From the IMG/VR virus record IMGVR_UViG_2778261069_000010: a DNA stretch of 8,747 bases; one strand, written 5' to 3'. The notes beneath the pieces were generated by a model. The model searched no databases. It saw nothing but the letters and a program-made list of their open reading frames with translations, and had not been told where the DNA came from. Below, piece after piece: positions 1 through 8,747 of this stretch. The first letter of the stretch is position 1, and every line of letters begins with the position of its first letter. The position numbers and the translations under genes are program-made. The stretch comes from a virus (lineage: Duplodnaviria > Heunggongvirae > Uroviricota > Caudoviricetes).

Positions 1-369
1 GTGAAGGCTAATGAAACAACCGAAGCAATATTGATTATCGCAGGACTTTGGATGATAAAAAAAGTCAATTACATTTCTATTGAGATATTCAATGAAACAT
101 TCGACAACTTACGTTCTCGAGTGGAGTCCGCTTTCGATAAGTATTTAAAGTTTGAAGAAAATAAAGAAATCAAAGATAATGCAGATAGTATTAAGAGTAG
201 CATTACAGGTTTGATTGATAAAGCTAAAAAAAGGATGAGAACTGTTAAATATCTCGCATCAGCCATGTTTTATGGAGGCCTTATTTACGTTGGATATAAA
301 CAGTTCCCAGTCTTTTTTGAAAAATCGGCAGTAAATCTATTTTATTTTTTATGCCATACTATAAGCTAA
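1..369 (+). CDS. Hypothetical protein, probably 5'-partial (frame open to window edge); AT-rich moron-like gene convergent with Q
   Basis: At least 122 codons stay open in markedly AT-rich DNA, where stop codons are frequent by chance. The stop at 367-369 overlaps the 3' end of Q by 21 bp. The product has hydrophobic stretches (AILIIAGLWMI, YLASAMFYGGLIYVGY) between K/E-rich segments. No family recognised. Confidence 0.45.
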   Translation: MKANETTEAILIIAGLWMIKKVNYISIEIFNETFDNLRSRVESAFDKYLKFEENKEIKDNADSIKSSITGLIDKAKKRMRTVKYLASAMFYGGLIYVGYKQFPVFFEKSAVNLFYFLCHTIS

Positions 370-705
370 CATTGCTAAACAGCCGTCAACAAACCCCATG
401 GCAGTCTGCAATTCCTTCCTAATTGTGCCATCTGAACATCTTCTCTTCTTGGCAATAGTGCGTAATGAGATACCAATAACAAAGTGAGCTATGAGCAGCT
501 CATATTCCTCTGGTTTATACTTTCGCAACCGAGCCACACAACCGTCTATCATGATGCCTTCATCATCATCACACTGGAGACGTGACTTTTTACCGTGTGG
601 TAAAAGTCCCTTGAAACCAGCCGCTATCGGCTGCCAGTCCACACCACTATTTTCTGCTGCAGCCCATGCTCCCCAGCGGTCCAATACTTCATACATATCA
701 CGCAT
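349..705 (-). CDS. Q: Phage late-gene antitermination protein Q (Q family as found in E. coli lambdoid prophages, QuuD/QuuQ-like)
   Basis: Product has the LDRWGAWAA...GFKG...DDD...C.ARL pattern I recall for prophage Q antiterminators. ATG at 705 is preceded by GGAGAAAG (6-nt spacer); the track start at 720 is a TTG. Position at the distal end of the nin-like region is as expected. Confidence 0.8.
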   Translation of the reverse strand: MRDMYEVLDRWGAWAAAENSGVDWQPIAAGFKGLLPHGKKSRLQCDDDEGIMIDGCVARLRKYKPEEYELLIAHFVIGISLRTIAKKRRCSDGTIRKELQTAMGFVDGCLAMLAYSMA

Positions 706-722
706 CAACTTTCTCCACAAAA

Positions 723-1718
723 TCAGGCCAGCACGCCAATTGCCAGCGCACGATCGATAAAACGAAATATCAGCTCCAGCTGGGAGCCATACTTCTCTTC
801 AAATGCCACGGTATCCGCATGCAGCTCGTCGTGATGCTTTCTGCACAAAGGCAACACAAAGAGGTCATGCGCTTTTGTACCCATTCCCCCCTGACCGTGG
901 CCTATCAGGTGGTGGGGATCATCAGCAGGCTTTCCACAACATGCACACGGCTGTGTCTTAACCCAGCGCGTGTACTTTTCATTAACCCAGCGGCGACGTT
1001 TTGGGCGTAACATAAAAGACTCCGGCGACTCCGGATCCACTTTCAGCGCCAGCACCTTTTTCGCCTTATCCTGGATGATGCTGGTGGCAGGAACCGAAGG
1101 CACAAGGTCACTTTCCCGGGTGACAGACGGCACAACAGGCTTCGGTAATCTCAGTGCCTTACGGGCAGCACTTTCCGGTAAGGCATCCGCCAGGTCATTA
1201 CGAATCAGCCACCAGCACAGTTCCGGCATTGTCACAACGTGACTATCATCAAAACCGAGATCCCGACGCACAACAGACAACACCCAGCGGGCACAGTTAT
1301 CCGTTGCCATTGATTCCAGCCGTTCCGTGAACTGATCGCGCAGCTGGTTATCGCAGTGCCAGCACAGACGGATTGCGCCCGGAGCGTGTCGCATTGTGGT
1401 CATGTTCTCGCTGTGCCAGTCGGAATGAGGCCACTGGCAGCCTTTTTCACGAAGTAACCAGCTTTCAAGACATTCCACGCCACCAGCACGACGGATCACT
1501 GCCTCATTGCGGAACACGGCCCGAACGGCAGGATCATCCGCCAGCGGTTGTGATGCCGCCGGAACGGCACCACTGGCGAAAGATGAATAACGTTCTGGCT
1601 CAGGCTCCAGCAGGACACGCCCCTGCATAAACAGGGGCATCAACTCTGAACCTGGCCTGAACAATACGATCCCCATACGCGGGGCAATTTCAGGGGTCAG
1701 TAGTGCTCTCACGGTCAC
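723..1718 (-). CDS. DUF968-like protein (YdfU-like), C-terminal Cys/His cluster suggestive of an HNH-like zinc-binding nuclease fold
   Basis: 331-codon ORF immediately upstream of Q, as YdfU sits next to Q in the Qin prophage. C-terminus contains CACCGKP...HHLIGHG...CRKHHDELH. GTG start at 1718 is 1 nt from the upstream stop; the exact start is uncertain. Confidence 0.6.
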   Translation of the reverse strand: MTVRALLTPEIAPRMGIVLFRPGSELMPLFMQGRVLLEPEPERYSSFASGAVPAASQPLADDPAVRAVFRNEAVIRRAGGVECLESWLLREKGCQWPHSDWHSENMTTMRHAPGAIRLCWHCDNQLRDQFTERLESMATDNCARWVLSVVRRDLGFDDSHVVTMPELCWWLIRNDLADALPESAARKALRLPKPVVPSVTRESDLVPSVPATSIIQDKAKKVLALKVDPESPESFMLRPKRRRWVNEKYTRWVKTQPCACCGKPADDPHHLIGHGQGGMGTKAHDLFVLPLCRKHHDELHADTVAFEEKYGSQLELIFRFIDRALAIGVLA

Positions 1719-1719
1719 C

Positions 1720-2562
1720 TCAATGAACGGTATCGAGCAGCTTTAACAGCTCAGGGAATCGGGATTCGAAGAAATGCGGCTGCGTCTCGCGCGGATTTGC
1801 GGGACTGGTGATGTTCTTGCCGAACATGCAGCCTTTCGCCGTCAGCGACCAGAATTTTTTGATGTTGTTAATCGCAGTGCGGCTGTATCGTTCACGTTGT
1901 TCAACGATCCCCAGCTTCGCCATCTGGTGATATGCCTGATTAGCTGTCAGGCGGATACCATACTGCTTCAGCAGTGCACTCAGTGACAGCGTGGGGCGGC
2001 TTGAGCCATCAGGCGCGTCAGCAGGAGCATCAATAGCATAGCGCGGTGCCAGATTCGGTAAGCCAACAGCTTCCTGGAGTTTCTGACAGGCACCAAGCAC
2101 TGATGAGTTAGACAGATTTAACTCCCGGCGCATAAAGTCCAGCAGAATCACGCCAGCCTGCATCTTGTCAGCAGCCTGCCCGGATAATTTTTCCGGTGTG
2201 CTGGTTACCATGTCGAAAGTACGGATCACCTTCAGATGGAATGACGGGCTGATCCACATTGCATAGGCATACACCAGTTCCTTACAGACATATGTTCCGC
2301 CATTCCGCCCTTCTATTTTACTGACAGGTTTACTACCCAAATTTTGGGTAGTTTCATTGAATGAACCGACACCCAGATTTTGGGTATCGATCAATTCCTG
2401 AACCAGCTCAGTAATCTGTTGGCTAGAAAGAAACTTTCCCGGCTCCTTGGTTCTGGCATTTGCACCAGATGCTACTGCTGCGCGATGCAGATCGTTCAGG
2501 CTGTAACGCCCATAAGCATCACGACGAACTTCAATACCATCAATGACCATCAGATTATTCAT
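1720..2562 (-). CDS. KilA-N domain protein (antirepressor/Bro-like DNA-binding protein)
   Basis: N-terminus MNNLMVIDGIEVRRDAYGRYSLNDLH ... GTYVCKELVYAYAMWISPSFHLKVIRTFD matches the KilA-N pattern. ATG at 2562 is preceded by GAGGAG (9-nt spacer). The track start at 2595 would overlap the rusA 3' end. Confidence 0.7.
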   Translation of the reverse strand: MNNLMVIDGIEVRRDAYGRYSLNDLHRAAVASGANARTKEPGKFLSSQQITELVQELIDTQNLGVGSFNETTQNLGSKPVSKIEGRNGGTYVCKELVYAYAMWISPSFHLKVIRTFDMVTSTPEKLSGQAADKMQAGVILLDFMRRELNLSNSSVLGACQKLQEAVGLPNLAPRYAIDAPADAPDGSSRPTLSLSALLKQYGIRLTANQAYHQMAKLGIVEQRERYSRTAINNIKKFWSLTAKGCMFGKNITSPANPRETQPHFFESRFPELLKLLDTVH

Positions 2563-2581
2563 ACTTCGTTTCTCCTCTTGA

Positions 2582-2971
2582 TCAGGCAGCTGCACCCGCC
2601 GTTTTCTCGTACTTACTGATAGTGATCTCGACCTTCCCTTCCGGGATAACCGGTCCCCATTCCACCAGCATTCTTTTCACCTGACTGTCGTCTTCCCACA
2701 CCCCCGCGTGGGTCAGGGCGTCAAACAGCGCCTTGTTATAGTTGTCCAGATCGCGGATCCTGTTATCCGGAGGAAACAACACGATCTCCACTGAAGCAGG
2801 TGCCGACGTTGGTTTCGGCAGACGACGTAACTGTTCAACTATTGCTGCGCACGCCGCGCTCTGAAATTTTCGCCCCGCCGCGCTTATCAGGCTCTTACCT
2901 GCAAACGCCCCTTTGTTGGGGTGTCGCCAGTACGTGTTCACGCTGGGCGGAAAAGGCAGGATAAGCTTCAT
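2582..2971 (-). CDS. rusA: Crossover junction endodeoxyribonuclease RusA (Holliday junction resolvase)
   Basis: Product carries LPFPPSVNTYWRH ... RDLDNYNKALFDALTHAGVWEDDSQV, aligning with the catalytic DLDN region of E. coli RusA. ATGA overlap with the upstream gene. Confidence 0.85.
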   Translation of the reverse strand: MKLILPFPPSVNTYWRHPNKGAFAGKSLISAAGRKFQSAACAAIVEQLRRLPKPTSAPASVEIVLFPPDNRIRDLDNYNKALFDALTHAGVWEDDSQVKRMLVEWGPVIPEGKVEITISKYEKTAGAAA

Positions 2972-3294
2972 ACTTTCAAGCCCCTCTCATGTAACCAGTG
3001 AGTTGCACGCAGCCTGGCGTTTTCCTCACCGGCAAGCAGTGCGCGGATAATCCCGACCGTCTCGCTGTCGTCGTCCTTCACTGCGGTATGAAGCGTTATC
3101 CCCCGGGCCACGCCACGCTTTATTGTGATGACGCCTTTTTTCTCCAGTGCGCGAAGATGCTCCACCGCTGCATTCACCGAACGGTATCCCAGCATGGTTG
3201 CCACCTCCTGATTGGTTGGCGGGAAGCCACGTTCTTTCTGGTAAGAAATCAGCATATCCAGCACCTGCTGCTGGCATTGAGTTAACGTCGTCAT
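2968..3294 (-). CDS. LexA N-terminal DNA-binding domain-like protein (winged helix, no S24 peptidase domain)
   Basis: MTTLTQCQQQVLDMLISYQKERGFPPTNQEVATMLGYRSVNAAVEHLRALEKKGVI aligns by eye with the LexA N-terminus (LTARQQEVFDLI...[35 protein letters not shown]). Start at 3294 shares one A with the upstream stop (TAATG). The track start at 3327 would overlap the upstream gene. Confidence 0.6.
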   Translation of the reverse strand: MTTLTQCQQQVLDMLISYQKERGFPPTNQEVATMLGYRSVNAAVEHLRALEKKGVITIKRGVARGITLHTAVKDDDSETVGIIRALLAGEENARLRATHWLHERGLKV

Positions 3295-3773
3295 TAAGCC
3301 CCCACGTAATTGCCTGGCAGATACCACTCTTCACCCGATGCCACGCACCTTTTACTTTTGCGTACACACCGCTCACGGCGCGCCAGAAAATTGTTTCGTT
3401 CTGACTGGGAGTGGCTTTCACGGAATGCCTCCATCCACACCGTTGCAGCACGACGAAATAAACCTCTTGACTCCAGATCTTCTGCCTGCTGAATCAGGCG
3501 CAAAATCACCCGCTGATCATTAGTGCCGACGTAGCTTTTACTGGCCACACTCATATGCTTCAGCACCGGCTCAGGTGGCAACACAGCCTTGCGAGAAAAA
3601 TGCCGGTGTGTTTTGCCTTCACTGCGATAAGCGACACGTCTGCACTGGCGTAACTTACTGGTCGTATTCAGTACACGGGGACGTGGAAAGTATGCAAACG
3701 CGTTCGCAATATCACCGGTCGTACATCCAGGATTGCTTTCAATGAATTTTTGAATCTCACTCATCAGGCTCAT
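3294..3773 (-). CDS. Hypothetical regulator with C-terminal PerC-like motif (LESRGLFRRAATVWMEAF)
   Basis: ATG at 3773 is preceded by AGGGGGTG and lies 2 nt after the upstream stop. The C-terminal segment resembles the G-L-W-R-R-A-A..W motif of the PerC/Pch family, recalled from memory and not searched. It occupies the slot where a P/DnaC-type helicase loader usually sits. Confidence 0.5.
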   Translation of the reverse strand: MSLMSEIQKFIESNPGCTTGDIANAFAYFPRPRVLNTTSKLRQCRRVAYRSEGKTHRHFSRKAVLPPEPVLKHMSVASKSYVGTNDQRVILRLIQQAEDLESRGLFRRAATVWMEAFRESHSQSERNNFLARRERCVRKSKRCVASGEEWYLPGNYVGA

Positions 3774-3775
3774 GA

Positions 3776-4582
3776 TCACCCCCTGAATCCTGCCGGGATC
3801 TGGCTGTAGTCCACATTGTTGTAACTGGCTTTGAAGTACGGGTCTTCGCATCTGGCCGCCGATACCGCAGGAACTTCCCAGGATTCTTCGAAATGACGAT
3901 CCGGACCAAAGAACGTGACAGCCTGTTTCACAAATTGTGTGCCGCTGTTACCCATCGCAGATACCCAGCCCGCGTAGCGTTTCACACCTTCCAGCATGGT
4001 TTCGGGGTTTACCCCCTCGTTCAAACGGGCTTTCCAGGCTTTGAAGGCCGCTGATTTTGAATTGCCACCAGCACGTTTGGGATATGCCAGCCATGCCTGC
4101 TCAAACTCCGGAGAGTATTCCGGTCGGTTTGAACGAACTCGCACAGACTCATCAGCAGATGCACCAACAGCTATTGGTTCATTGACTGGTTCAAAAGAGT
4201 GACTGGTTCTGGGTGAATCTCCTGCACTACCCCCTGGTGCAACTCCTGCACTACCTGGTGAATTTGCTGCACCAGATAGTGAATTATTTGCACTACCCCC
4301 TAGTGAATCTCCTGCACCATCAAGATGAAGAAGATAGATATTACTTGAGTTACCTTTTTCACCTTTCCTGGTGACTTTTTTTACCAGCCCGGACTCACAG
4401 AGGGCCGCAATATGATTCATCACAGAACGTTTGCTAATCTCGCACTGATCAGCGATATGCTGATAGCTGGGCCAGCACTCGCCCTGATCGCTGGCATTAT
4501 CAGCCAGCTTAATCAGAACCAGTTTTCGCAATGGATTTCCCACTCGAATTTTCATCGCTTTAACCATCAGCTCCATACTCAT
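3776..4582 (-). CDS. Replication initiator, lambda O-like: N-terminal HTH (replisome-organizer type), Gly/Ser-rich linker encoded by the iterons, distinct C-terminal domain
   Basis: N-terminus LRKLVLIKLADNASDQGECWPSYQHIADQCEISKRSVMNHIAALCESGLVKKV resembles the lambda O N-terminal DNA-binding region. The linker GGSANNSLSGAANSPGSAGVAPGGSAGDSP is encoded by the direct repeats at 4213-4325. ATGA overlap with the upstream gene. Confidence 0.7.
   Translation of the reverse strand: MSMELMVKAMKIRVGNPLRKLVLIKLADNASDQGECWPSYQHIADQCEISKRSVMNHIAALCESGLVKKVTRKGEKGNSSNIYLLHLDGAGDSLGGSANNSLSGAANSPGSAGVAPGGSAGDSPRTSHSFEPVNEPIAVGASADESVRVRSNRPEYSPEFEQAWLAYPKRAGGNSKSAAFKAWKARLNEGVNPETMLEGVKRYAGWVSAMGNSGTQFVKQAVTFFGPDRHFEESWEVPAVSAARCEDPYFKASYNNVDYSQIPAGFRG
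4213..4385. repeat. Putative origin of replication: five 21-24 bp iterons (core GTGAATCTCCTGCACTACC) followed by an AT-rich stretch, inside the O-like gene
   Basis: Direct repeats start at 4213, 4237, 4258, 4279 and 4303 (gtgaatctcctgcactacc / gtgcaactcctgcactacc / gtgaatttgctgcaccaga / gtgaattatttgcactacc / gtgaatctcctgcaccatc). AT-rich DNA follows at 4326-4385. Same architecture as ori-lambda within O. Confidence 0.55.
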
Positions 4583-4815
4583 GCAGCACCTCCGAGATGC
4601 TTCATGTTTTTTCCGGAGCGAAAGGCTATAAGCGGCATACTGACGCGGTAATTACGGCCCAGCGGTTCACAAATCACTTTCTGACATTCACGGTCAACCA
4701 GGCTAACACGTAGAACATGCCCTGCAGGCGTGGTGTACCACTGCCCAACTGTAGGAATTGATGTTTTTTTACGCTGAAGTAAACGGCGAATATTGAGGCT
4801 CAACGGATTAAGCAT
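4579..4815 (-). CDS. Small hypothetical protein, DUF4222-like
   Basis: 78-codon ORF. ATG at 4815 is preceded by GGAGGG (7-nt spacer) and overlaps the upstream stop by 8 nt. The W-Y...G..L.V.....C........Y pattern resembles small DUF4222 prophage proteins; low certainty. Confidence 0.45.
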   Translation of the reverse strand: MLNPLSLNIRRLLQRKKTSIPTVGQWYTTPAGHVLRVSLVDRECQKVICEPLGRNYRVSMPLIAFRSGKNMKHLGGAA

Positions 4816-5644
4816 GACGATGCCCTCCGCTGATATTCAGGAGACGGTGAATATGAAAATTAGCCTTATCCACCAAACGGATACGTTCAGCCTGCAAGTT
4901 AAGAAGGGTTTCTACCAGAACCTGATGCGCCTGCGGATCCGAAAGAGTTACCTTGCGCAGAGCACGTAGTGCAGTTGTTACATAACTGAGTTTATGTAAG
5001 TCTTCATCATTCAGACGAGTGAGGGCTGGGACAGTAGCCATGATGGCAGCCTCCTTGATCGGTGAAATACTTCCACCACCGGAAACGCCAATTTCGCTGG
5101 TGGTGAACTGAACGGGGTTGGCGTAACCGGTGATCAAGGAAACCGGCGCATCTTTCGATGCCCCCGCCCAGCCCACCATAACTTTGATGTGAGCAAATGC
5201 GGACGATAAAAAAGACGCTGGCGCGTCATATATCGCCTTGATCAATTCCAGGACGCCAATCCCGGCACCCGCTTTATAAGGTGCCTGAACAGTGTAACGT
5301 CCCGGAATGGCAGAATCAATGTGCTGGTGGTCCTTCACACTCAACAAAATCACGCCTGAATTTCCACAAAGGACTAAAGCACTCATGCGGGTAGTCTTTG
5401 CGAAGATAGATAACGCGCTGTGTTTCTGGCTCCCAACGAATAACATGAACATAAAGTCCTCTTCCGTCACGAAACCAGCGGTTAAGTTCCTGCACAACTC
5501 GCCCCCCACAGTCAGGTAAAGTTCTCTGTGGTTACTTACAGCCAGGTGATTTGGTAATCTGCATTCATGCCGTAACAACAGGTGTTCAGCGACGCTGACC
5601 ACCAGCTGTTGCGACAAACGGTTATTTGCCGTTAAACTGTTCAT
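4808..5644 (-). CDS. Hypothetical early-operon protein (278 aa), function unknown
   Basis: Long ORF with ATGA start/stop overlap to the upstream gene and GGAGA upstream. Normal GC content. No Walker A motif; no family recognised by eye. Confidence 0.55.
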   Translation of the reverse strand: MNSLTANNRLSQQLVVSVAEHLLLRHECRLPNHLAVSNHRELYLTVGGELCRNLTAGFVTEEDFMFMLFVGSQKHSALSIFAKTTRMSALVLCGNSGVILLSVKDHQHIDSAIPGRYTVQAPYKAGAGIGVLELIKAIYDAPASFLSSAFAHIKVMVGWAGASKDAPVSLITGYANPVQFTTSEIGVSGGGSISPIKEAAIMATVPALTRLNDEDLHKLSYVTTALRALRKVTLSDPQAHQVLVETLLNLQAERIRLVDKANFHIHRLLNISGGHRHA

Positions 5645-6204
5645 GCGTTAGTTTCTCCACAGACACAAAACGCCACGACGCCCGGAGCTGCACACTCGCG
5701 GGCGTCACTCTTTTCTGGAGCGCAAAAGATTTTGTAGACCAGTGCTGCATGCTCCTGGAGCTTCGAAATTGACAGATACAACTCATCATTAATTGCTGTC
5801 TGCTCGTGTGGCTCCACTACCCCATCTTCGATTGCCGAACGAATCTGCTTTGAGTAACTCCCGATCTGTTCGATGACTTCCAGCAGGCGCTGGTTGATAT
5901 CGGCGTTCTCTACTTCCTCAATTTCAGGAAGCGATACAAACACCCCACCAGCAGACTGTGCGACAGCATCCGCAATGTAGTGAGTGCCAGCCGCGCGCTG
6001 TAAAATCATTGCCCATCCCAGCGGGAAAATCTGATCGCCATCTGCACGAAGGCGGTTGAATAAAGCGTTCTCTGTTACATCCAGCCACTCAGCAGCTTCA
6101 GCGTAACCCCCCGGCAACGCCGCGATAGTTTTTCTGACAGCTTTCACGTACCACTCAGGCTGTTTTTCTACTTTCCAGTGATGCTTACCCACGGTTAGCC
6201 TCAT
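5641..6204 (-). CDS. CII-like / YdaT-family regulator (inferred)
   Basis: Second gene of the rightward operon, directly after a YdaS-type Cro-like gene. Contains an HTH-like segment (GGYAEAAEWLDVTENALFNRLR). Family assignment rests on synteny and loose resemblance, not a verified match. Confidence 0.5.
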   Translation of the reverse strand: MRLTVGKHHWKVEKQPEWYVKAVRKTIAALPGGYAEAAEWLDVTENALFNRLRADGDQIFPLGWAMILQRAAGTHYIADAVAQSAGGVFVSLPEIEEVENADINQRLLEVIEQIGSYSKQIRSAIEDGVVEPHEQTAINDELYLSISKLQEHAALVYKIFCAPEKSDARECAAPGVVAFCVCGETNA

Positions 6205-6235
6205 CGTTCTGTGGTTAAAAATTGAAGGTGTTCTG

Positions 6236-6436
6236 TTAATCTTTCGGATAGATATCCGGTCTTAAGTCAGATTTCGTAATTGCACCTGACGTGCATTGCT
6301 CAAGTTTTTTAGCCAGCACAAAACTGGCTTTTTTATAACCATTGAAAACCAGCCGTAAGTAGCCTGGTGTTGAGCCAACTTTGCCAGCCAACTCGGCCTG
6401 CTGTTCTTTGGTTAAAGAGTCCCAATACGCTTTCAT
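6236..6436 (-). CDS. Cro-like HTH transcriptional regulator (YdaS/Cro family)
   Basis: 66-aa product MKAYWDSLTKEQQAELAGKVGSTPGYLRLVFNGYKKAS...LRPDIYPKD with a typical HTH. ATG at 6436 is preceded by GGAGGT (8-nt spacer). Divergent from the CI-type repressor. The track ORF 6236-6739 is an upstream over-extension. Confidence 0.7.
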   Translation of the reverse strand: MKAYWDSLTKEQQAELAGKVGSTPGYLRLVFNGYKKASFVLAKKLEQCTSGAITKSDLRPDIYPKD

Positions 6437-6526
6437 ACAATATGTACCTCCGGTATACACATTACATGATTGAGATGAACCTTCAAGATACTTGTACCTT
6501 AACGGTACAAGGGTTTTAATTTCGTT
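6437..6526. promoter_or_regulatory. Divergent immunity control region (OR-like): operator repeats plus candidate pRM-like promoter for leaderless cI
   Basis: Perfect 8-bp inverted repeat CTTGTACC-ttaac-GGTACAAG at 6491-6511; ATGTACC at 6442-6448. Candidate -35 TTGTAC (6492-6497), 17-bp spacer, -10 TTTAAT (6515-6520), placing +1 at or near the cI ATG (6527) with no SD. The promoter for the cro-like gene was not confidently located. Confidence 0.5.
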
Positions 6527-7201
6527 ATGAAAACAGTCCATGACATCCGGCGGTCTAACGCCAGAAAACTGAGAGATGGTGTTGGCGGGAATTCTTCCTT
6601 TGCCACCATGATTGATCGCGAGCCAACCCAGACCAGCAGGTTTATGGGAGATGGTGCAACTAAAAATATCGGTGACAGCATGGCACGGCACATCGAAAAA
6701 TGTTTCGACCTGCCTGTCGGATGGCTTGATCAAGAACACCAGACAACGAACATCACAAAAAAACCTGATGTTTCAATCACTAACAAACAAATAACGTTAG
6801 TCCCTGTCATATCATGGGTACAGGCCGGAGCATGGAAAGAAGTTGGCTATTCTGAGGTTGATTTGAGCACAGCAGAAACTTATCCCTGCCCTGTACCCTG
6901 TGGCGAAATGACTTATATCTTGCGGGTGATTGGTGATTCAATGATTGATGAATACCGCCCGGGAGATATGATTTTTGTTGATCCTGAAGTACCTGCCTGC
7001 CACGGTGACGACGTTATTGCATTGATGCACGATACAGGTGAAACCACCTTTAAAAGGTTGATAGAAGACGGAACACAACGTTATCTCAAAGCATTAAACC
7101 CAAACTGGCCAGAGCCTTACATTAAGATCAACGGTAATTGTTCCATAATTGGTACTGTGATTTTCTCAGGAAAACCAAGGAGATACCATATTAAAGCCTA
7201 A
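6527..7201 (+). CDS. cI: CI-type phage repressor (HTH N-domain, S24 LexA-like autopeptidase C-domain), P22 C2 / lambda CI-like
   Basis: C-domain matches by eye: ISWVQAG (Ala-Gly cleavage site), GDSM (catalytic Ser), DMIFVDPE, TTFKRL (catalytic Lys), LNPNWP, NGNCSIIGTVI. These parallel P22 C2 (ISWVSAGQW, GDSM, ILVDPE, TFKKL, LNPQYP, NGNCKIIGVV). Confidence 0.9.
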   Translation: MKTVHDIRRSNARKLRDGVGGNSSFATMIDREPTQTSRFMGDGATKNIGDSMARHIEKCFDLPVGWLDQEHQTTNITKKPDVSITNKQITLVPVISWVQAGAWKEVGYSEVDLSTAETYPCPVPCGEMTYILRVIGDSMIDEYRPGDMIFVDPEVPACHGDDVIALMHDTGETTFKRLIEDGTQRYLKALNPNWPEPYIKINGNCSIIGTVIFSGKPRRYHIKA

Positions 7202-7213
7202 TCAATATTTATG

Positions 7214-7236
7214 AACCTGCTTCGGCAGGTTTTTTT
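7214..7236 (+). terminator. Rho-independent terminator downstream of cI
   Basis: Stem AACCTGC / GCAGGTT with a TTCG tetraloop, followed by a T-run (7230-7236), 13 nt after the cI stop. Confidence 0.7.
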
Positions 7237-7240
7237 ATAC

Positions 7241-7268
7241 TTGACAATGTACCCTTGAGATACATAAT
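7241..7268 (+). promoter_or_regulatory. pL-like sigma70 promoter with overlapping operator repeats (OL-like)
   Basis: -35 TTGACA (7241-7246), 16-bp spacer, -10 CATAAT (7263-7268). Two copies of AATGTACCC (7246-7254 and 7265-7273, 19-bp period) overlap the spacer and -10, as expected for repressor operators. Confidence 0.55.
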
Positions 7269-7376
7269 GTACCCAGATGAAACAGCGAACAGGCAGGATG
7301 CCCACGAAGTAGCCGCCCGGGGCATATGAAGACCGGGATGATTCGTTAGCAACAAAAAAGCGCCGTACCGGACACT

Positions 7377-7389
7377 TCGCTCTTTAACA
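7377..7389 (+). promoter_or_regulatory. boxA-like antitermination element (rrn/nut type) in the pL leader
   Basis: CGCTCTTTAACAA closely matches the rrn boxA consensus GCTCTTTAACAA and lambda nut boxA CGCTCTTA. It lies about 100 nt downstream of the predicted pL start. No clear boxB hairpin was identified by eye. Confidence 0.45.
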
Positions 7390-7435
7390 ATCTGATCCCC
7401 ATCAACAAGTAATTGATAACTTGAGGAAGTGTGAA

Positions 7436-7678
7436 ATGCACAAAACAGAACCAAAAATCGTCGCGCCAGGCTACACAGATGAGGAAATTTACGAGTGGAT
7501 GACAAAGAAGCTGGCTGCTATAAACCAGCTTCGTGAAGTGCAGTCTTATCGTCAGGAAACAATAGACTCCTTAAAAAAAACTAGATCAGGAGATCACATC
7601 TTTATCGCAAGAATCTACTCTAGATATTGTTCATACAAATTAGGATCCCATTCTTTTTCGTCAAAGTTATCAAAGTGA
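7436..7678 (+). CDS. Small hypothetical ORF, first ORF of the pL transcript; 3' part runs into the AT-rich island and may be truncated or fused
   Basis: ATG at 7436 is preceded by GAGGAAG (6-nt spacer). The first ~45 codons are in normal-GC DNA; the remainder lies in AT-rich DNA and overlaps the 3' end of the convergent gene 7615-8049. Not arginine-rich, so not N-like. Confidence 0.3.
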   Translation: MHKTEPKIVAPGYTDEEIYEWMTKKLAAINQLREVQSYRQETIDSLKKTRSGDHIFIARIYSRYCSYKLGSHSFSSKLSK

Positions 7679-8049
7679 TAAATTTGAGATCTCCAGTCTA
7701 AATTATCTAAAAAATCCTTAGCTCTTTTACTCATTTTATCAAACGTCAATTCATCCTGAATAGAAAGAATAAGATCATCAAACTCCATTTCATTAATTTT
7801 TTTTGGTGTCCAATGATGTTTCATAAGAATAAGGTGAATCAACGCATTTTTCCCTTTCAATTGATTATAGGGTGTGCTGAATTTCTTTCTATGCTCATAT
7901 AGTACAAGATCAAGCAAAGTCAGGAATGCGGCTCTTGATTCAACCTTAACTTTATCGATTGTTTGAACTATTCCACTAGTATTAATACCACGACACTTTC
8001 CAACATTTTCACAGTGGGATGCATACAGGTCACGTATATAAACAGACAT
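7615..8049 (-). CDS. Hypothetical protein (144 aa) in an AT-rich island, antisense to the pL operon; candidate accessory/exclusion gene
   Basis: ATG at 8049 is preceded by AAGGAAAAG. Composition is sharply AT-rich from about 7566 to 8050. No family recognised. The frame remains open upstream to 8313 in GC-rich DNA, but the RBS and composition favour the 8049 start. Confidence 0.55.
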   Translation of the reverse strand: MSVYIRDLYASHCENVGKCRGINTSGIVQTIDKVKVESRAAFLTLLDLVLYEHRKKFSTPYNQLKGKNALIHLILMKHHWTPKKINEMEFDDLILSIQDELTFDKMSKRAKDFLDNLDWRSQIYHFDNFDEKEWDPNLYEQYLE

Positions 8050-8065
8050 TCTCTTTTCCTTTTGC

Positions 8066-8112
8066 GTTGTTGGGGATACCCAGATTAACCGAATCCTTGT
8101 TGTTGGGGAATA
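8066..8112. repeat. Two direct repeats GTTGTTGGGGA (8066-8076, 8102-8112), 36-bp period, immediately upstream of the start of the 7615-8049 gene
   Basis: Exact 11-bp repeat with similar flanks (gttgttggggataccc / gttgttggggaataacc). Function unknown. Confidence 0.4.
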
Positions 8113-8335
8113 ACCAGGTCCACCTCGCCTGATGTGGCTAAAAGCAGGCACATAACAGCTAAGTATTTTCAACCAGAGAGAATCCTTAGCGTTGTGGTGA
8201 ATGCGGCTCAGCGCACGCGGGTTAAGGTTGAGGCTGACAGTCGACCTTCTGTGGATACCCACCCGCCTAGTGTGCAACCTTCGCCAGGCACCGGGAGGCA
8301 CCCGGCACCACAACTTTATGCTGTGTGTAGTCCTG

Positions 8336-8383
8336 GCGGTACCAGCTTGTACCCTTGCTTCCGGCTGGTACCGCTCTTTTTAC
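8336..8383 (+). terminator. Strong stem-loop followed by a U-tract: candidate tL-type intrinsic terminator (or structured RNA element)
   Basis: Perfect 11-bp inverted repeat GCGGTACCAGC (8336-8346) / GCTGGTACCGC (8364-8374) with a 17-nt loop, followed by TCTTTTTAC. The loop contains TTGTACCC, the operator-like motif. Confidence 0.45.
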
Positions 8384-8517
8384 AAAACAGAGAAGAGCAT
8401 CACCGGACGACGGGCTCATAACCCAATCCATCCGGGCGGCTGCCACCACAGGTGTTCTTCTCTGTTTTGTGGAGAAACTAATCGGCCTTGCAGGGCCGAT
8501 ATGATGAGGAGCAGCAA

Positions 8518-8747
8518 AATGGCTAGCGAACGCAGTACTGATGTGCAGGCATTTATCGGGGAGCTGGACGGCGGCGTATTTGAAACCAAAATCGGCGCAG
8601 TTCTCAGTGAAGTCGCTTCAGGTGTGATGAACACGAAAACCAAAGGTAAGGTCTCACTCAACCTGGAAATCGAACCATTTGATGAGAACCGTGTGAAAAT
8701 CAAACACAAACTCTCATATGTTCGCCCGACTAACCGCGGGAAAATTT
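8518..8747 (+). CDS. Hypothetical early-left operon protein, 3'-partial (runs off window end)
   Basis: ATG at 8518 is preceded by GAGGAG (7-nt spacer). The frame is open for 76 codons to the window edge (MASERSTDVQAFIGELDGGVFETKIGAVLSEVASGVMNTKTKGKVSLNLEIEPFDENRVKIKHKLSYVRPTNRGKI). Not in the ORF track because it has no stop in the window. No family recognised. Confidence 0.6.

Follow-up and report, generated by a model that had tools for sequence, protein, structure and literature searches.

The 3′ end of the DS-1B anti-phage gene overlaps the antiterminator gene Q in a lambdoid prophage, in a cargo slot bounded by a candidate late promoter

In this study, we analyzed an 8,747-nucleotide stretch of viral DNA (IMG/VR record IMGVR_UViG_2778261069_000010, Caudoviricetes; hereafter the window), whose first 369 nucleotides form an open frame on the plus strand that is cut by the window edge and converges with the antiterminator gene Q. 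We found that the frame represents the last third of the DS-1B gene, the second of the two genes that make up the DS-1 anti-phage system; as such, it is not novel in itself but a gene that has been described before. The explanation that best accounts for the whole, to which we assign a probability of roughly 85%, is that the window opens with the tail of DS-1B, that this gene is cargo placed between Q and the lysis genes, that DS-1 would act through a mechanism like that of the PANGU systems, and that the late promoter has been displaced. The features at this end of the window are as follows.

1–369, plus strand: 3′ part of the DS-1B gene (codons 283–404 and the stop), assigned by DNA and protein identity and by the NCBIfam profile NF053869
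16–81, plus strand: DS-1B residues 288–309, a predicted conserved hydrophobic helix forming the second half of the 267–309 hairpin (hydropathy and structural model)
241–312, plus strand: DS-1B residues 363–386, the second conserved hydrophobic segment (family mean hydropathy 1.0–1.45; within the model helix 337–403)
69–266, minus strand: antisense open reading frame (ORF) of 65 amino acids, hydrophobic, not a gene, a by-product of a frame that shares its wobble positions with DS-1B
349–369: exactly 21 bp shared by the converging DS-1B and Q genes at their 3′ ends, also annotated at 12349–12369 of locus L001 (E. coli 2016C-3878)
349–705, minus strand: antiterminator Q, 118 amino acids, Q21/PF06530 family (Pfam Phage_antitermQ, 2.6e-47)
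370–399: last stretch identical to L001, with the mosaic junction at about 399/400

Positions 1–369 are identical to L001 12001–12369 (369/369 nucleotides), and the 122 encoded amino acids are all identical (122/122) to residues 283–404 of WP_000150292.1, a protein of 404 amino acids. NCBIfam holds one equivalog model for each DS-1 protein, NF053868 (DS1_1_antiphage) and NF053869 (DS1_2_antiphage). With the latter, whose cut-off is 315 bits, a full-length relative that has an identical C-terminus reaches 375.2 bits (2.8e-112). The 96.1 bits (2.2e-27) obtained with the window fragment come from profile positions 242–337 of 337 and fall short of this whole-protein cut-off only because the fragment represents just one third of the protein. 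The DS-1A protein of L001 scores 451 bits with NF053868, for which the cut-off is 330. The original prediction, made from the letters of the window, had described an AT-rich plus-strand frame opposite Q, partial and with a 21-bp 3′ overlap, and the measurements bear out each of these points: the TAA stop is at 367–369, the G+C content is 31.7% over 1–369 versus 49.2% over 370–8747, and the GTG that opens the window serves as codon V283 of a 404-codon gene rather than as a start. The same prediction took the gene to be unrecognized, which did not hold, as DS-1B is experimentally validated and has an equivalog model of its own.

The remainder of the cassette can be read in relatives. In L001, the DS-1A gene (WP_000355468.1, 391 codons, annotated as "nucleoid-associated protein") is followed, after a 2-bp gap, by the gene for DS-1B (WP_000150292.1), and the cassette is flanked by Q and a lambda-family holin, both of which are encoded on the other strand. 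A DS-1A gene precedes DS-1B in every relative examined, namely L001, L008, L006, L009, and the 105 uninterrupted E. coli copies. DS-1A matches the Pfam NA37 family (YejK family) at 1.2e-23, and its NA37 domain is preceded by a zinc-ribbon-like CxxC-N11-CxxC motif at residues 1–28 (MDITCLECGNVLDDPTVACDKCG; L001 9977–10060), which gave only weak matches to Pfam zinc ribbons (E 0.07–0.3). In a Klebsiella prophage (L008), a pair with 85% identity occupies the equivalent site and extends 30 bp into Q (7195–7224). The holin that comes after the L008 cassette is of a different family, and endolysin and spanin genes follow the cassette in both L001 and L008. The IMG/VR contig L017 contains the cassette together with the DUF968/KilA-N backbone of the window and matches window positions 1–2298 at 96.5%. 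Further away, in Serratia and Pseudoteredinibacter, an NA37 gene and its partner are found in integrative islands beside BstA, AbiEii, and AAA_21 genes. The leftward extension that had been proposed as a check is thus provided by L001, L008, and L017, in which a complete two-gene cassette is followed by holin, endolysin, and spanin genes, and this layout supports the earlier view of a cargo gene convergent with Q in the interval between Q and the lysis genes.

A megablast search of complete E. coli genomes with window positions 1–720 recovered the whole stretch in 105 genomes. The 2.4-kb cassette itself is present in 106 of the 5,426 genomes (~2%), always with at least 99% identity, and the Q junction is found in 105 of these 106; the hosts include E. 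coli O104:H4 and O103:H2 strains. No cassette was found in INPHARED phages at the megablast level. The G+C content of the cassette is 34.9%, compared with 49.1% for its flanks, and close relatives of the window carry other cassettes in the same slot, on the opposite strand in SfII, mEp460, and a Stx1a phage. With this deviant composition, and in a slot that is otherwise filled in close relatives, the cassette is moron-like cargo. Upstream of DS-1A, promoter matches were limited to the consensus level (TTGATA-16-AAAAAT, 9/12) and were as frequent as by chance. Promoter-like matches inside the cassette were likewise found at chance frequency only, and an Rfam scan of the cassette and its flanks returned nothing.

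With the 122-residue fragment as a query, only a 78-residue fragment was returned, and the full-length DS-1B was used instead. Its homologues form 69 clusters, mostly from Enterobacterales with a few from marine gammaproteobacteria. An AlphaFold2 model built on 47 homologues (mean predicted local distance difference test score 85, predicted template modeling score 0.63) predicts an alpha/beta domain at residues 1 to ~165, a helical region at 169–268, and three long helices over 271–403, including helices at 288–331 and 337–403. The Kyte-Doolittle hydropathy averaged over the 47 homologues reveals two conserved hydrophobic stretches, 267–309 and 363–386, the first of which is split by a short polar loop (hairpin). 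Of these, the window covers the whole of the second and the latter half of the first, together with the charged helix that lies between. The N-terminal 270 amino acids, a soluble part for which the model shows a confident alpha/beta and helical fold, are acidic (isoelectric point 5.3, net charge −8). From the hydropathy and the model helices, the C-terminal part of DS-1B is predicted to be a transmembrane domain. A resemblance to alpha-pore-forming toxins and to CorA, limited to weak similarity of the long helices, was not significant and was not used.

The function of this pair has been reported in the DefensePredictor study (DeWeirdt et al., Science 2026, PMC13092281). In that study, WP_000150292.1 and WP_000355468.1 from GCF_003886375.1 constitute D390, that is DS-1, with the entry "replicated TRUE", and "a YejK nucleoid-associated domain" is counted among the domains newly validated in defense. 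When the identical pair was cloned in E. coli K-12, plating of Bas1 went down ~10^7-fold, and plating of Bas26, Bas3, and T3 by 10^1.7 to 10^2.7. The −log efficiencies of plating (EOP) in Table S7 are 7.6 for Bas1, 2.7 for Bas26, 1.7 for Bas3, and 1.7 for T3; the same source gives 1.0 for T5, 0.9 for T7, and none for SECphi27.

A mechanism can be proposed by analogy with type II PANGU (Li et al., bioRxiv 10.64898/2026.04.06.716658), which consists of a YejK-like protein, Pag2A, and a transmembrane effector, Pag2B. According to this preprint, the N-terminal domain of Pag2B mimics DNA (DMK) and binds Pag2A at 19 nM; defense depends on the two genes together, neither of which has toxicity by itself; infected cultures stop growing instead of lysing, with stunted growth at a high multiplicity of infection (MOI) that resembles abortive infection, and Pag2A fused to the green fluorescent protein leaves the nucleoid upon T4 infection. 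In an analogous scheme, DS-1A, as a nucleoid protein, would sit on the chromosome until an infecting phage degrades the host DNA, and it would then be released. The released DS-1A would bind the acidic N-terminal domain of DS-1B, and the membrane-embedded C-terminal domain of DS-1B would be switched on, stopping the growth of the infected cell (abortive infection). The lysogen population and its resident prophage would thereby be protected.

Several points weigh against this explanation. The window ends inside the gene, so the intact 5′ part and DS-1A are seen only in relatives, and an insertion sequence (IS) element is present inside the cassette in two of the 106 genomes. PADLOC-DB 2.0 (2023), a library older than the description of the system, contains no model matching either DS-1 protein. 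The hydropathy of DS-1B is modest, and the membrane call rests on hydropathy; a Foldseek search of DS-1B against the PDB returned nothing at E ≤ 0.001. DS-1 appears to be of the same kind as type II PANGU in its architecture, a likeness that concerns architecture only and not the PANGU-Ecu sequences. The phages that DS-1 blocks best (Bas1 and Bas26) differ from the T4 used with PANGU, and the accessible part of the DefensePredictor data has no T4 row for D390. Finally, the switching-on of the transmembrane effector is stated to be unresolved in the PANGU preprint itself (10.64898/2026.04.06.716658).

Three alternatives have to be considered in light of these points. The frame could be a dead remnant: if the cassette is broken off or disrupted beyond the left edge of the window, only a pseudogene tail without function would be left. 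That the window ends inside the gene would be compatible with this, as would the IS1 and ISKpn26 insertions seen within the cassette in 2 of 107 E. coli records and the fact that the whole window is matched by no complete E. coli genome in the collection. We nevertheless consider a remnant quite improbable: there are 0 substitutions in 369 nucleotides relative to intact cassettes, the cassette is uninterrupted in 105 of the 107 records, and the contig L017, on the same DUF968/KilA-N backbone, has the full interval of 2,435 bp from Q to the conserved module described below. A second alternative, named in the original prediction as a refuting scenario, is that the minus-strand hydrophobic ORF at 69–266 is the real gene, coding for a small holin-like protein, and that the plus frame is untranslated. 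This ORF is open and hydrophobic, lies on the same strand as Q, and is open in Klebsiella too, but a frame that shares its wobble positions with DS-1B in this way tends to stay open. Between E. coli and Klebsiella, the same stretch changes at 10 of 65 residues when read in antisense and at 4 of 66 when read in sense. Among seven homologues (down to ~30% identity), the sense frame contains 0 stops over 391–527 codons, whereas every antisense frame contains 12–42. The comparison with the 85%-identical Klebsiella gene yields 8, 6, and 35 changes at codon positions 1, 2, and 3, with 31 synonymous and 12 non-synonymous codons, a test that is not decisive alone because the antisense ORF has its wobble positions in common with the sense frame. 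In addition, the sense frame matches the curated profile NF053869, and a lambda-family holin follows the cassette in relatives. Based on the amino acid change rates, the stop counts, and the placement of the holin after the cargo, we ruled out a holin at 69–266, where the antisense frame is the less conserved one and lies outside any lysis cassette. We give this scenario practically no credence; judged by its sequence, the plus frame is the gene.

The third alternative is more serious, although we still regard it as unlikely. DS-1 could be a real defense system that does not work like PANGU, with the NA37 protein silencing or regulating either the cassette or incoming phage DNA, for example, and DS-1B acting as a membrane protein that blocks DNA entry (superinfection exclusion) instead of as an effector of abortive infection. 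An entry block would fit the strongest effect in the available DefensePredictor data, that on the siphovirus Bas1, for which the EOP is at the detection limit and no plaques are formed. Two of the points listed above, the undetermined activation step of transmembrane-type effectors and the lack of a significant structural relative of DS-1B in the PDB by Foldseek, also speak for it. However, type II PANGU, which has the same architecture, needs both of its genes, stunts growth at high MOI, and relocates its nucleoid-associated protein, and the 19 nM binding of Pag2A was obtained with the isolated N-terminal domain of Pag2B. Moreover, the NA37 gene and its partner are kept as an operon across distant genera, which fits a sensor–effector pair. 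We therefore retain the PANGU-like mechanism as the preferred reading.

Turning to Q, its start is the ATG at 705, and the mechanically called ORF reaches a TTG at 720. The protein is 93% identical to WP_001205470.1 and distantly matches the Q21 structures 6p18 and 6jnx (crystal and cryo-electron microscopy; E = 0.002). When window positions 1–720 are compared with L001, all 31 mismatches are at or beyond position 400, which places the mosaic junction within the last 17 codons of Q. Similarly, in seven loci, the Q proteins hardly differ over their first ~100 residues but vary with the cargo type over the last ~15, the tail being AMLAYSMA with DS-1 and SILFW, CILNR, SML, or LIIKPL with other cargos. 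Because the tail differs with the cargo, cassette exchange appears to rewrite the C-terminal tail of Q, which would travel with the cargo. At the other side of the overlap, a search of positions 1–1800 revealed no plus-strand terminator downstream of the DS-1B stop, so cassette transcripts probably continue antisense into Q. The original prediction had suggested that convergence might affect the expression of Q, and this read-through could act as a damper of Q. The paQ transcript of lambda, an antisense brake on Q, is the textbook precedent.

The position of the cargo raises the question of the late promoter. A comparison of the DS-1, L002, L003, and SfII junctions revealed neither a conserved sequence nor room for a common pR′ directly after Q: cargo and Q overlap by 21 bp in the window and are separated by 28–30 bp in L002 and L003 and by 3 bp in SfII. 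On the far side of the cargo, on the strand of Q, an exact 14-mer, ACGCGTACGCAAAA, is found in 6 of 6 loci. It belongs to a block of ~60 nucleotides, CTAACGCGTACGCAAAA-N2-TATyGTAAT-N-TGTTAAGAGTGG..., followed by a G+C-rich hairpin and a T tract. In short form, the module can be written ACGCGTACGCAAAA-N12-TGnTAAGAGT, mostly with a terminator-like hairpin after it, and ACGCGTACGC and TGnTAAGAGT are sequence elements within it. Its conservation begins sharply at the cargo boundary. The six copies, each at the distal edge of the cargo and on the strand of Q, are as follows.

L001, 9838–9925, minus strand: module
L002, 1300–1392, minus strand: module
L003, 1665–1760, minus strand: module
L004, ~1330–1425, minus strand: module
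L005, 3007–3100, plus strand: module
L008, 4670–4768, minus strand: module

The module is present in the Klebsiella prophage L008 despite an unrelated holin and leader, and it is therefore linked to Q rather than to the lysis genes. When IMG/VR was scanned for the 14-mer, at least 120 stretches were retrieved, which together with the six loci gave 126 occurrences for examination. The extended block is present at 112 of them, and a hairpin with a T tract was detected in 80 by a crude test. In all 92 listed loci with enough upstream DNA, a Q homologue (61–97% identity) is encoded on the same strand, 617–3,584 bp upstream of the 14-mer (median 1,616). In the window, the only match to the 14-mer is a chance one with 2 mismatches at 3698.

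The contig L069 (369–1000) is informative in this respect. It encodes a distant Q (44%, QuuD-like), and its 14-mer is located 36 bp after the aligned end of Q, where it overlaps the end of the Q ORF as called mechanically; the distance between the 14-mer and GTTAAAGT is ~10 bp longer. There is no cargo; after the 14-mer come two terminator-like hairpins, then an ORF without an assigned function, and a large ORF on the same strand that, recognized by eye only, looks like a structural late gene of the tail-sheath type. This layout is, as far as sequence can tell, the canonical order Q-pR′-tR′. We infer that the module is a candidate pR′/qut/tR′ of this Q subfamily. The invariant TGnTAAGAGT looks like either an extended −10 or a sigma-dependent pause element, both of which fit, and a second architecture with TATyGT as the −10 fits the module as well. 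Two possible guides were set aside: homology to the characterized qut of phage 21, as Q is only a distant relative of Q21 (E = 0.002), and the Sakai StxS/pR′ mapping, which concerns a different Q type with a pR′ adjoining Q. The original prediction had left open both the identity of the gene and the fate of the late promoter. The first is now known, and for the second, the late promoter and the Q-loading site are probably displaced beyond the cargo rather than lost. With the promoter there, Q-modified late transcription would not need to cross the cassette head-on. In L002, which among the cargo variants is the nearest relative of the window, an IS5 (1393–2600) has entered at the CTAA that immediately precedes the 14-mer. 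Should the module be the late promoter, any promoter elements further upstream would be cut off from it by this insertion.

The interval between Q and the module appears to be a hotspot for cargo. In the 92 listed loci, it always contains 1–4 ORFs, and 187 of these 192 ORFs are antisense to Q. The cargo of the IMG/VR loci (L011–L130) comprises at least 63 protein clusters and at least 37 architectures. Among the 58 cargo representatives scanned, matches were obtained to PDC-M53 (the SfII cargo), HEC-01, HEC-04, PDC-M25, AbiLi, AriA/OLD/Gabija-type ATPase-Toprim proteins (PARIS/OLD-like), Kiwa KwaA/KwaB, DS-8, a DS-9-like protein, a MADS3-like ATPase, and three clusters of DS-1-type pairs. These defense families mostly have 1–4 matching members each, and many cargo proteins match nothing; cargo types without annotation include those of 182 + 308, 160 + 273, 427, and 205 + 114 + 249 amino acids. 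In per-protein scans, the cargo of L002, of mEp460, and of the Stx1a phage gave no match above threshold. In this Stx1a-converting phage, Stx1_14040 (L003 1814–3921), three opposite-strand genes of 350, 130, and 220 amino acids lie between Q and the module, upstream of stx1A; none has a Pfam, NCBIfam, or PADLOC match, and they may form a candidate defense cassette in a Shiga-toxin phage.

Combining these observations, we tentatively propose, at clearly less than even odds, that the late promoter has been detached from a Q of 113–118 amino acids by an antisense defense slot of 0.6–3.6 kb, with each cargo bringing its own Q tail. We found no published description of this slot in the literature searched, and an earlier description is possible. 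If the proposal is true, the slot would be a ready catalogue of anti-phage systems yet to be tried, and read-through from the cargo would be a built-in antisense brake on late expression, to be compared with paQ of lambda.

From a practical perspective, the appropriate annotation for positions 1–369 is DS-1B anti-phage effector gene, 3′ end. The natural place of DS-1 is a prophage slot beside Q, which means that the prophage takes along the resistance of its lysogen to some phages. Since a 14-mer that is simple to search for marks its boundary, the slot could be mined for new systems, and it also offers a test case for Q-dependent late transcription across variable cargo. The Q-linked module and the antisense defense slot are by-products of this analysis that are more interesting than the gene itself.

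Beyond Q, the window continues with the early-right arm of an e14/mEp460-like lambdoid prophage, which has the following genes.

723–1718: DUF968
1720–2595: KilA-N
2582–2971: RusA, named from the RusA annotations in L002 and L004
3294–3851: PerC-like
3776–4582: HTH_36/DnaD-like replication protein
4808–5644: Ash family
5641–6204: YmfL/CII-like
6527–7201, plus strand: S24 repressor

A second AT-rich patch (28–35% G+C) is located to the right of the repressor gene, at 7500–8000. An ORF at 7615–8313, on the minus strand, encodes an ECs1072-family phage-associated protein (NCBIfam, 5.4e-47) and is likely another cargo gene, beside the immunity region.

How does this cassette compare with known systems? 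It is like the DS-1 of DefensePredictor in that the end of DS-1B is identical and an identical DS-1A lies directly upstream in relatives. There is no visible sequence difference from the published system, and the position overlapping Q is not described in the part of PMC13092281 available to us. Like type II PANGU, DS-1 is an E. coli-derived, anti-phage, bicistronic system in which the gene for a YejK/NA37-like protein comes first and that for its partner, acidic in its N-terminal part and hydrophobic in its C-terminal helices, comes second, and the 2-bp gap between its genes in relatives is within the spacing of <40 bp used to define type II PANGU. The two differ in the phages used for testing, T4 and Bas34 for PANGU and another panel for DS-1, and in the extra N-terminal zinc-ribbon-like CxxC...CxxC motif of DS-1A, which is absent from the text of the PANGU preprint.

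As for its location, the cassette resembles nmpC of DLP12 and lc of PA-2, which occupy the same slot, convergent with Q and ahead of the holin. However, these two genes encode porins (lysogenic conversion and receptor change), whereas DS-1 is a two-gene defense system, and DLP12 of K-12 has a Q of a different subfamily, without the 14-mer. The slot is also reminiscent of the P2 and P4 hotspots (Rousset et al. 2022, PMC9122126), where many alternative defense cassettes occupy a fixed place with conserved bounds in temperate phages. In contrast to those hotspots, it belongs to another phage family, its bounds are the 3′ end of Q and the Q-linked module, and its cargo is almost always antisense.

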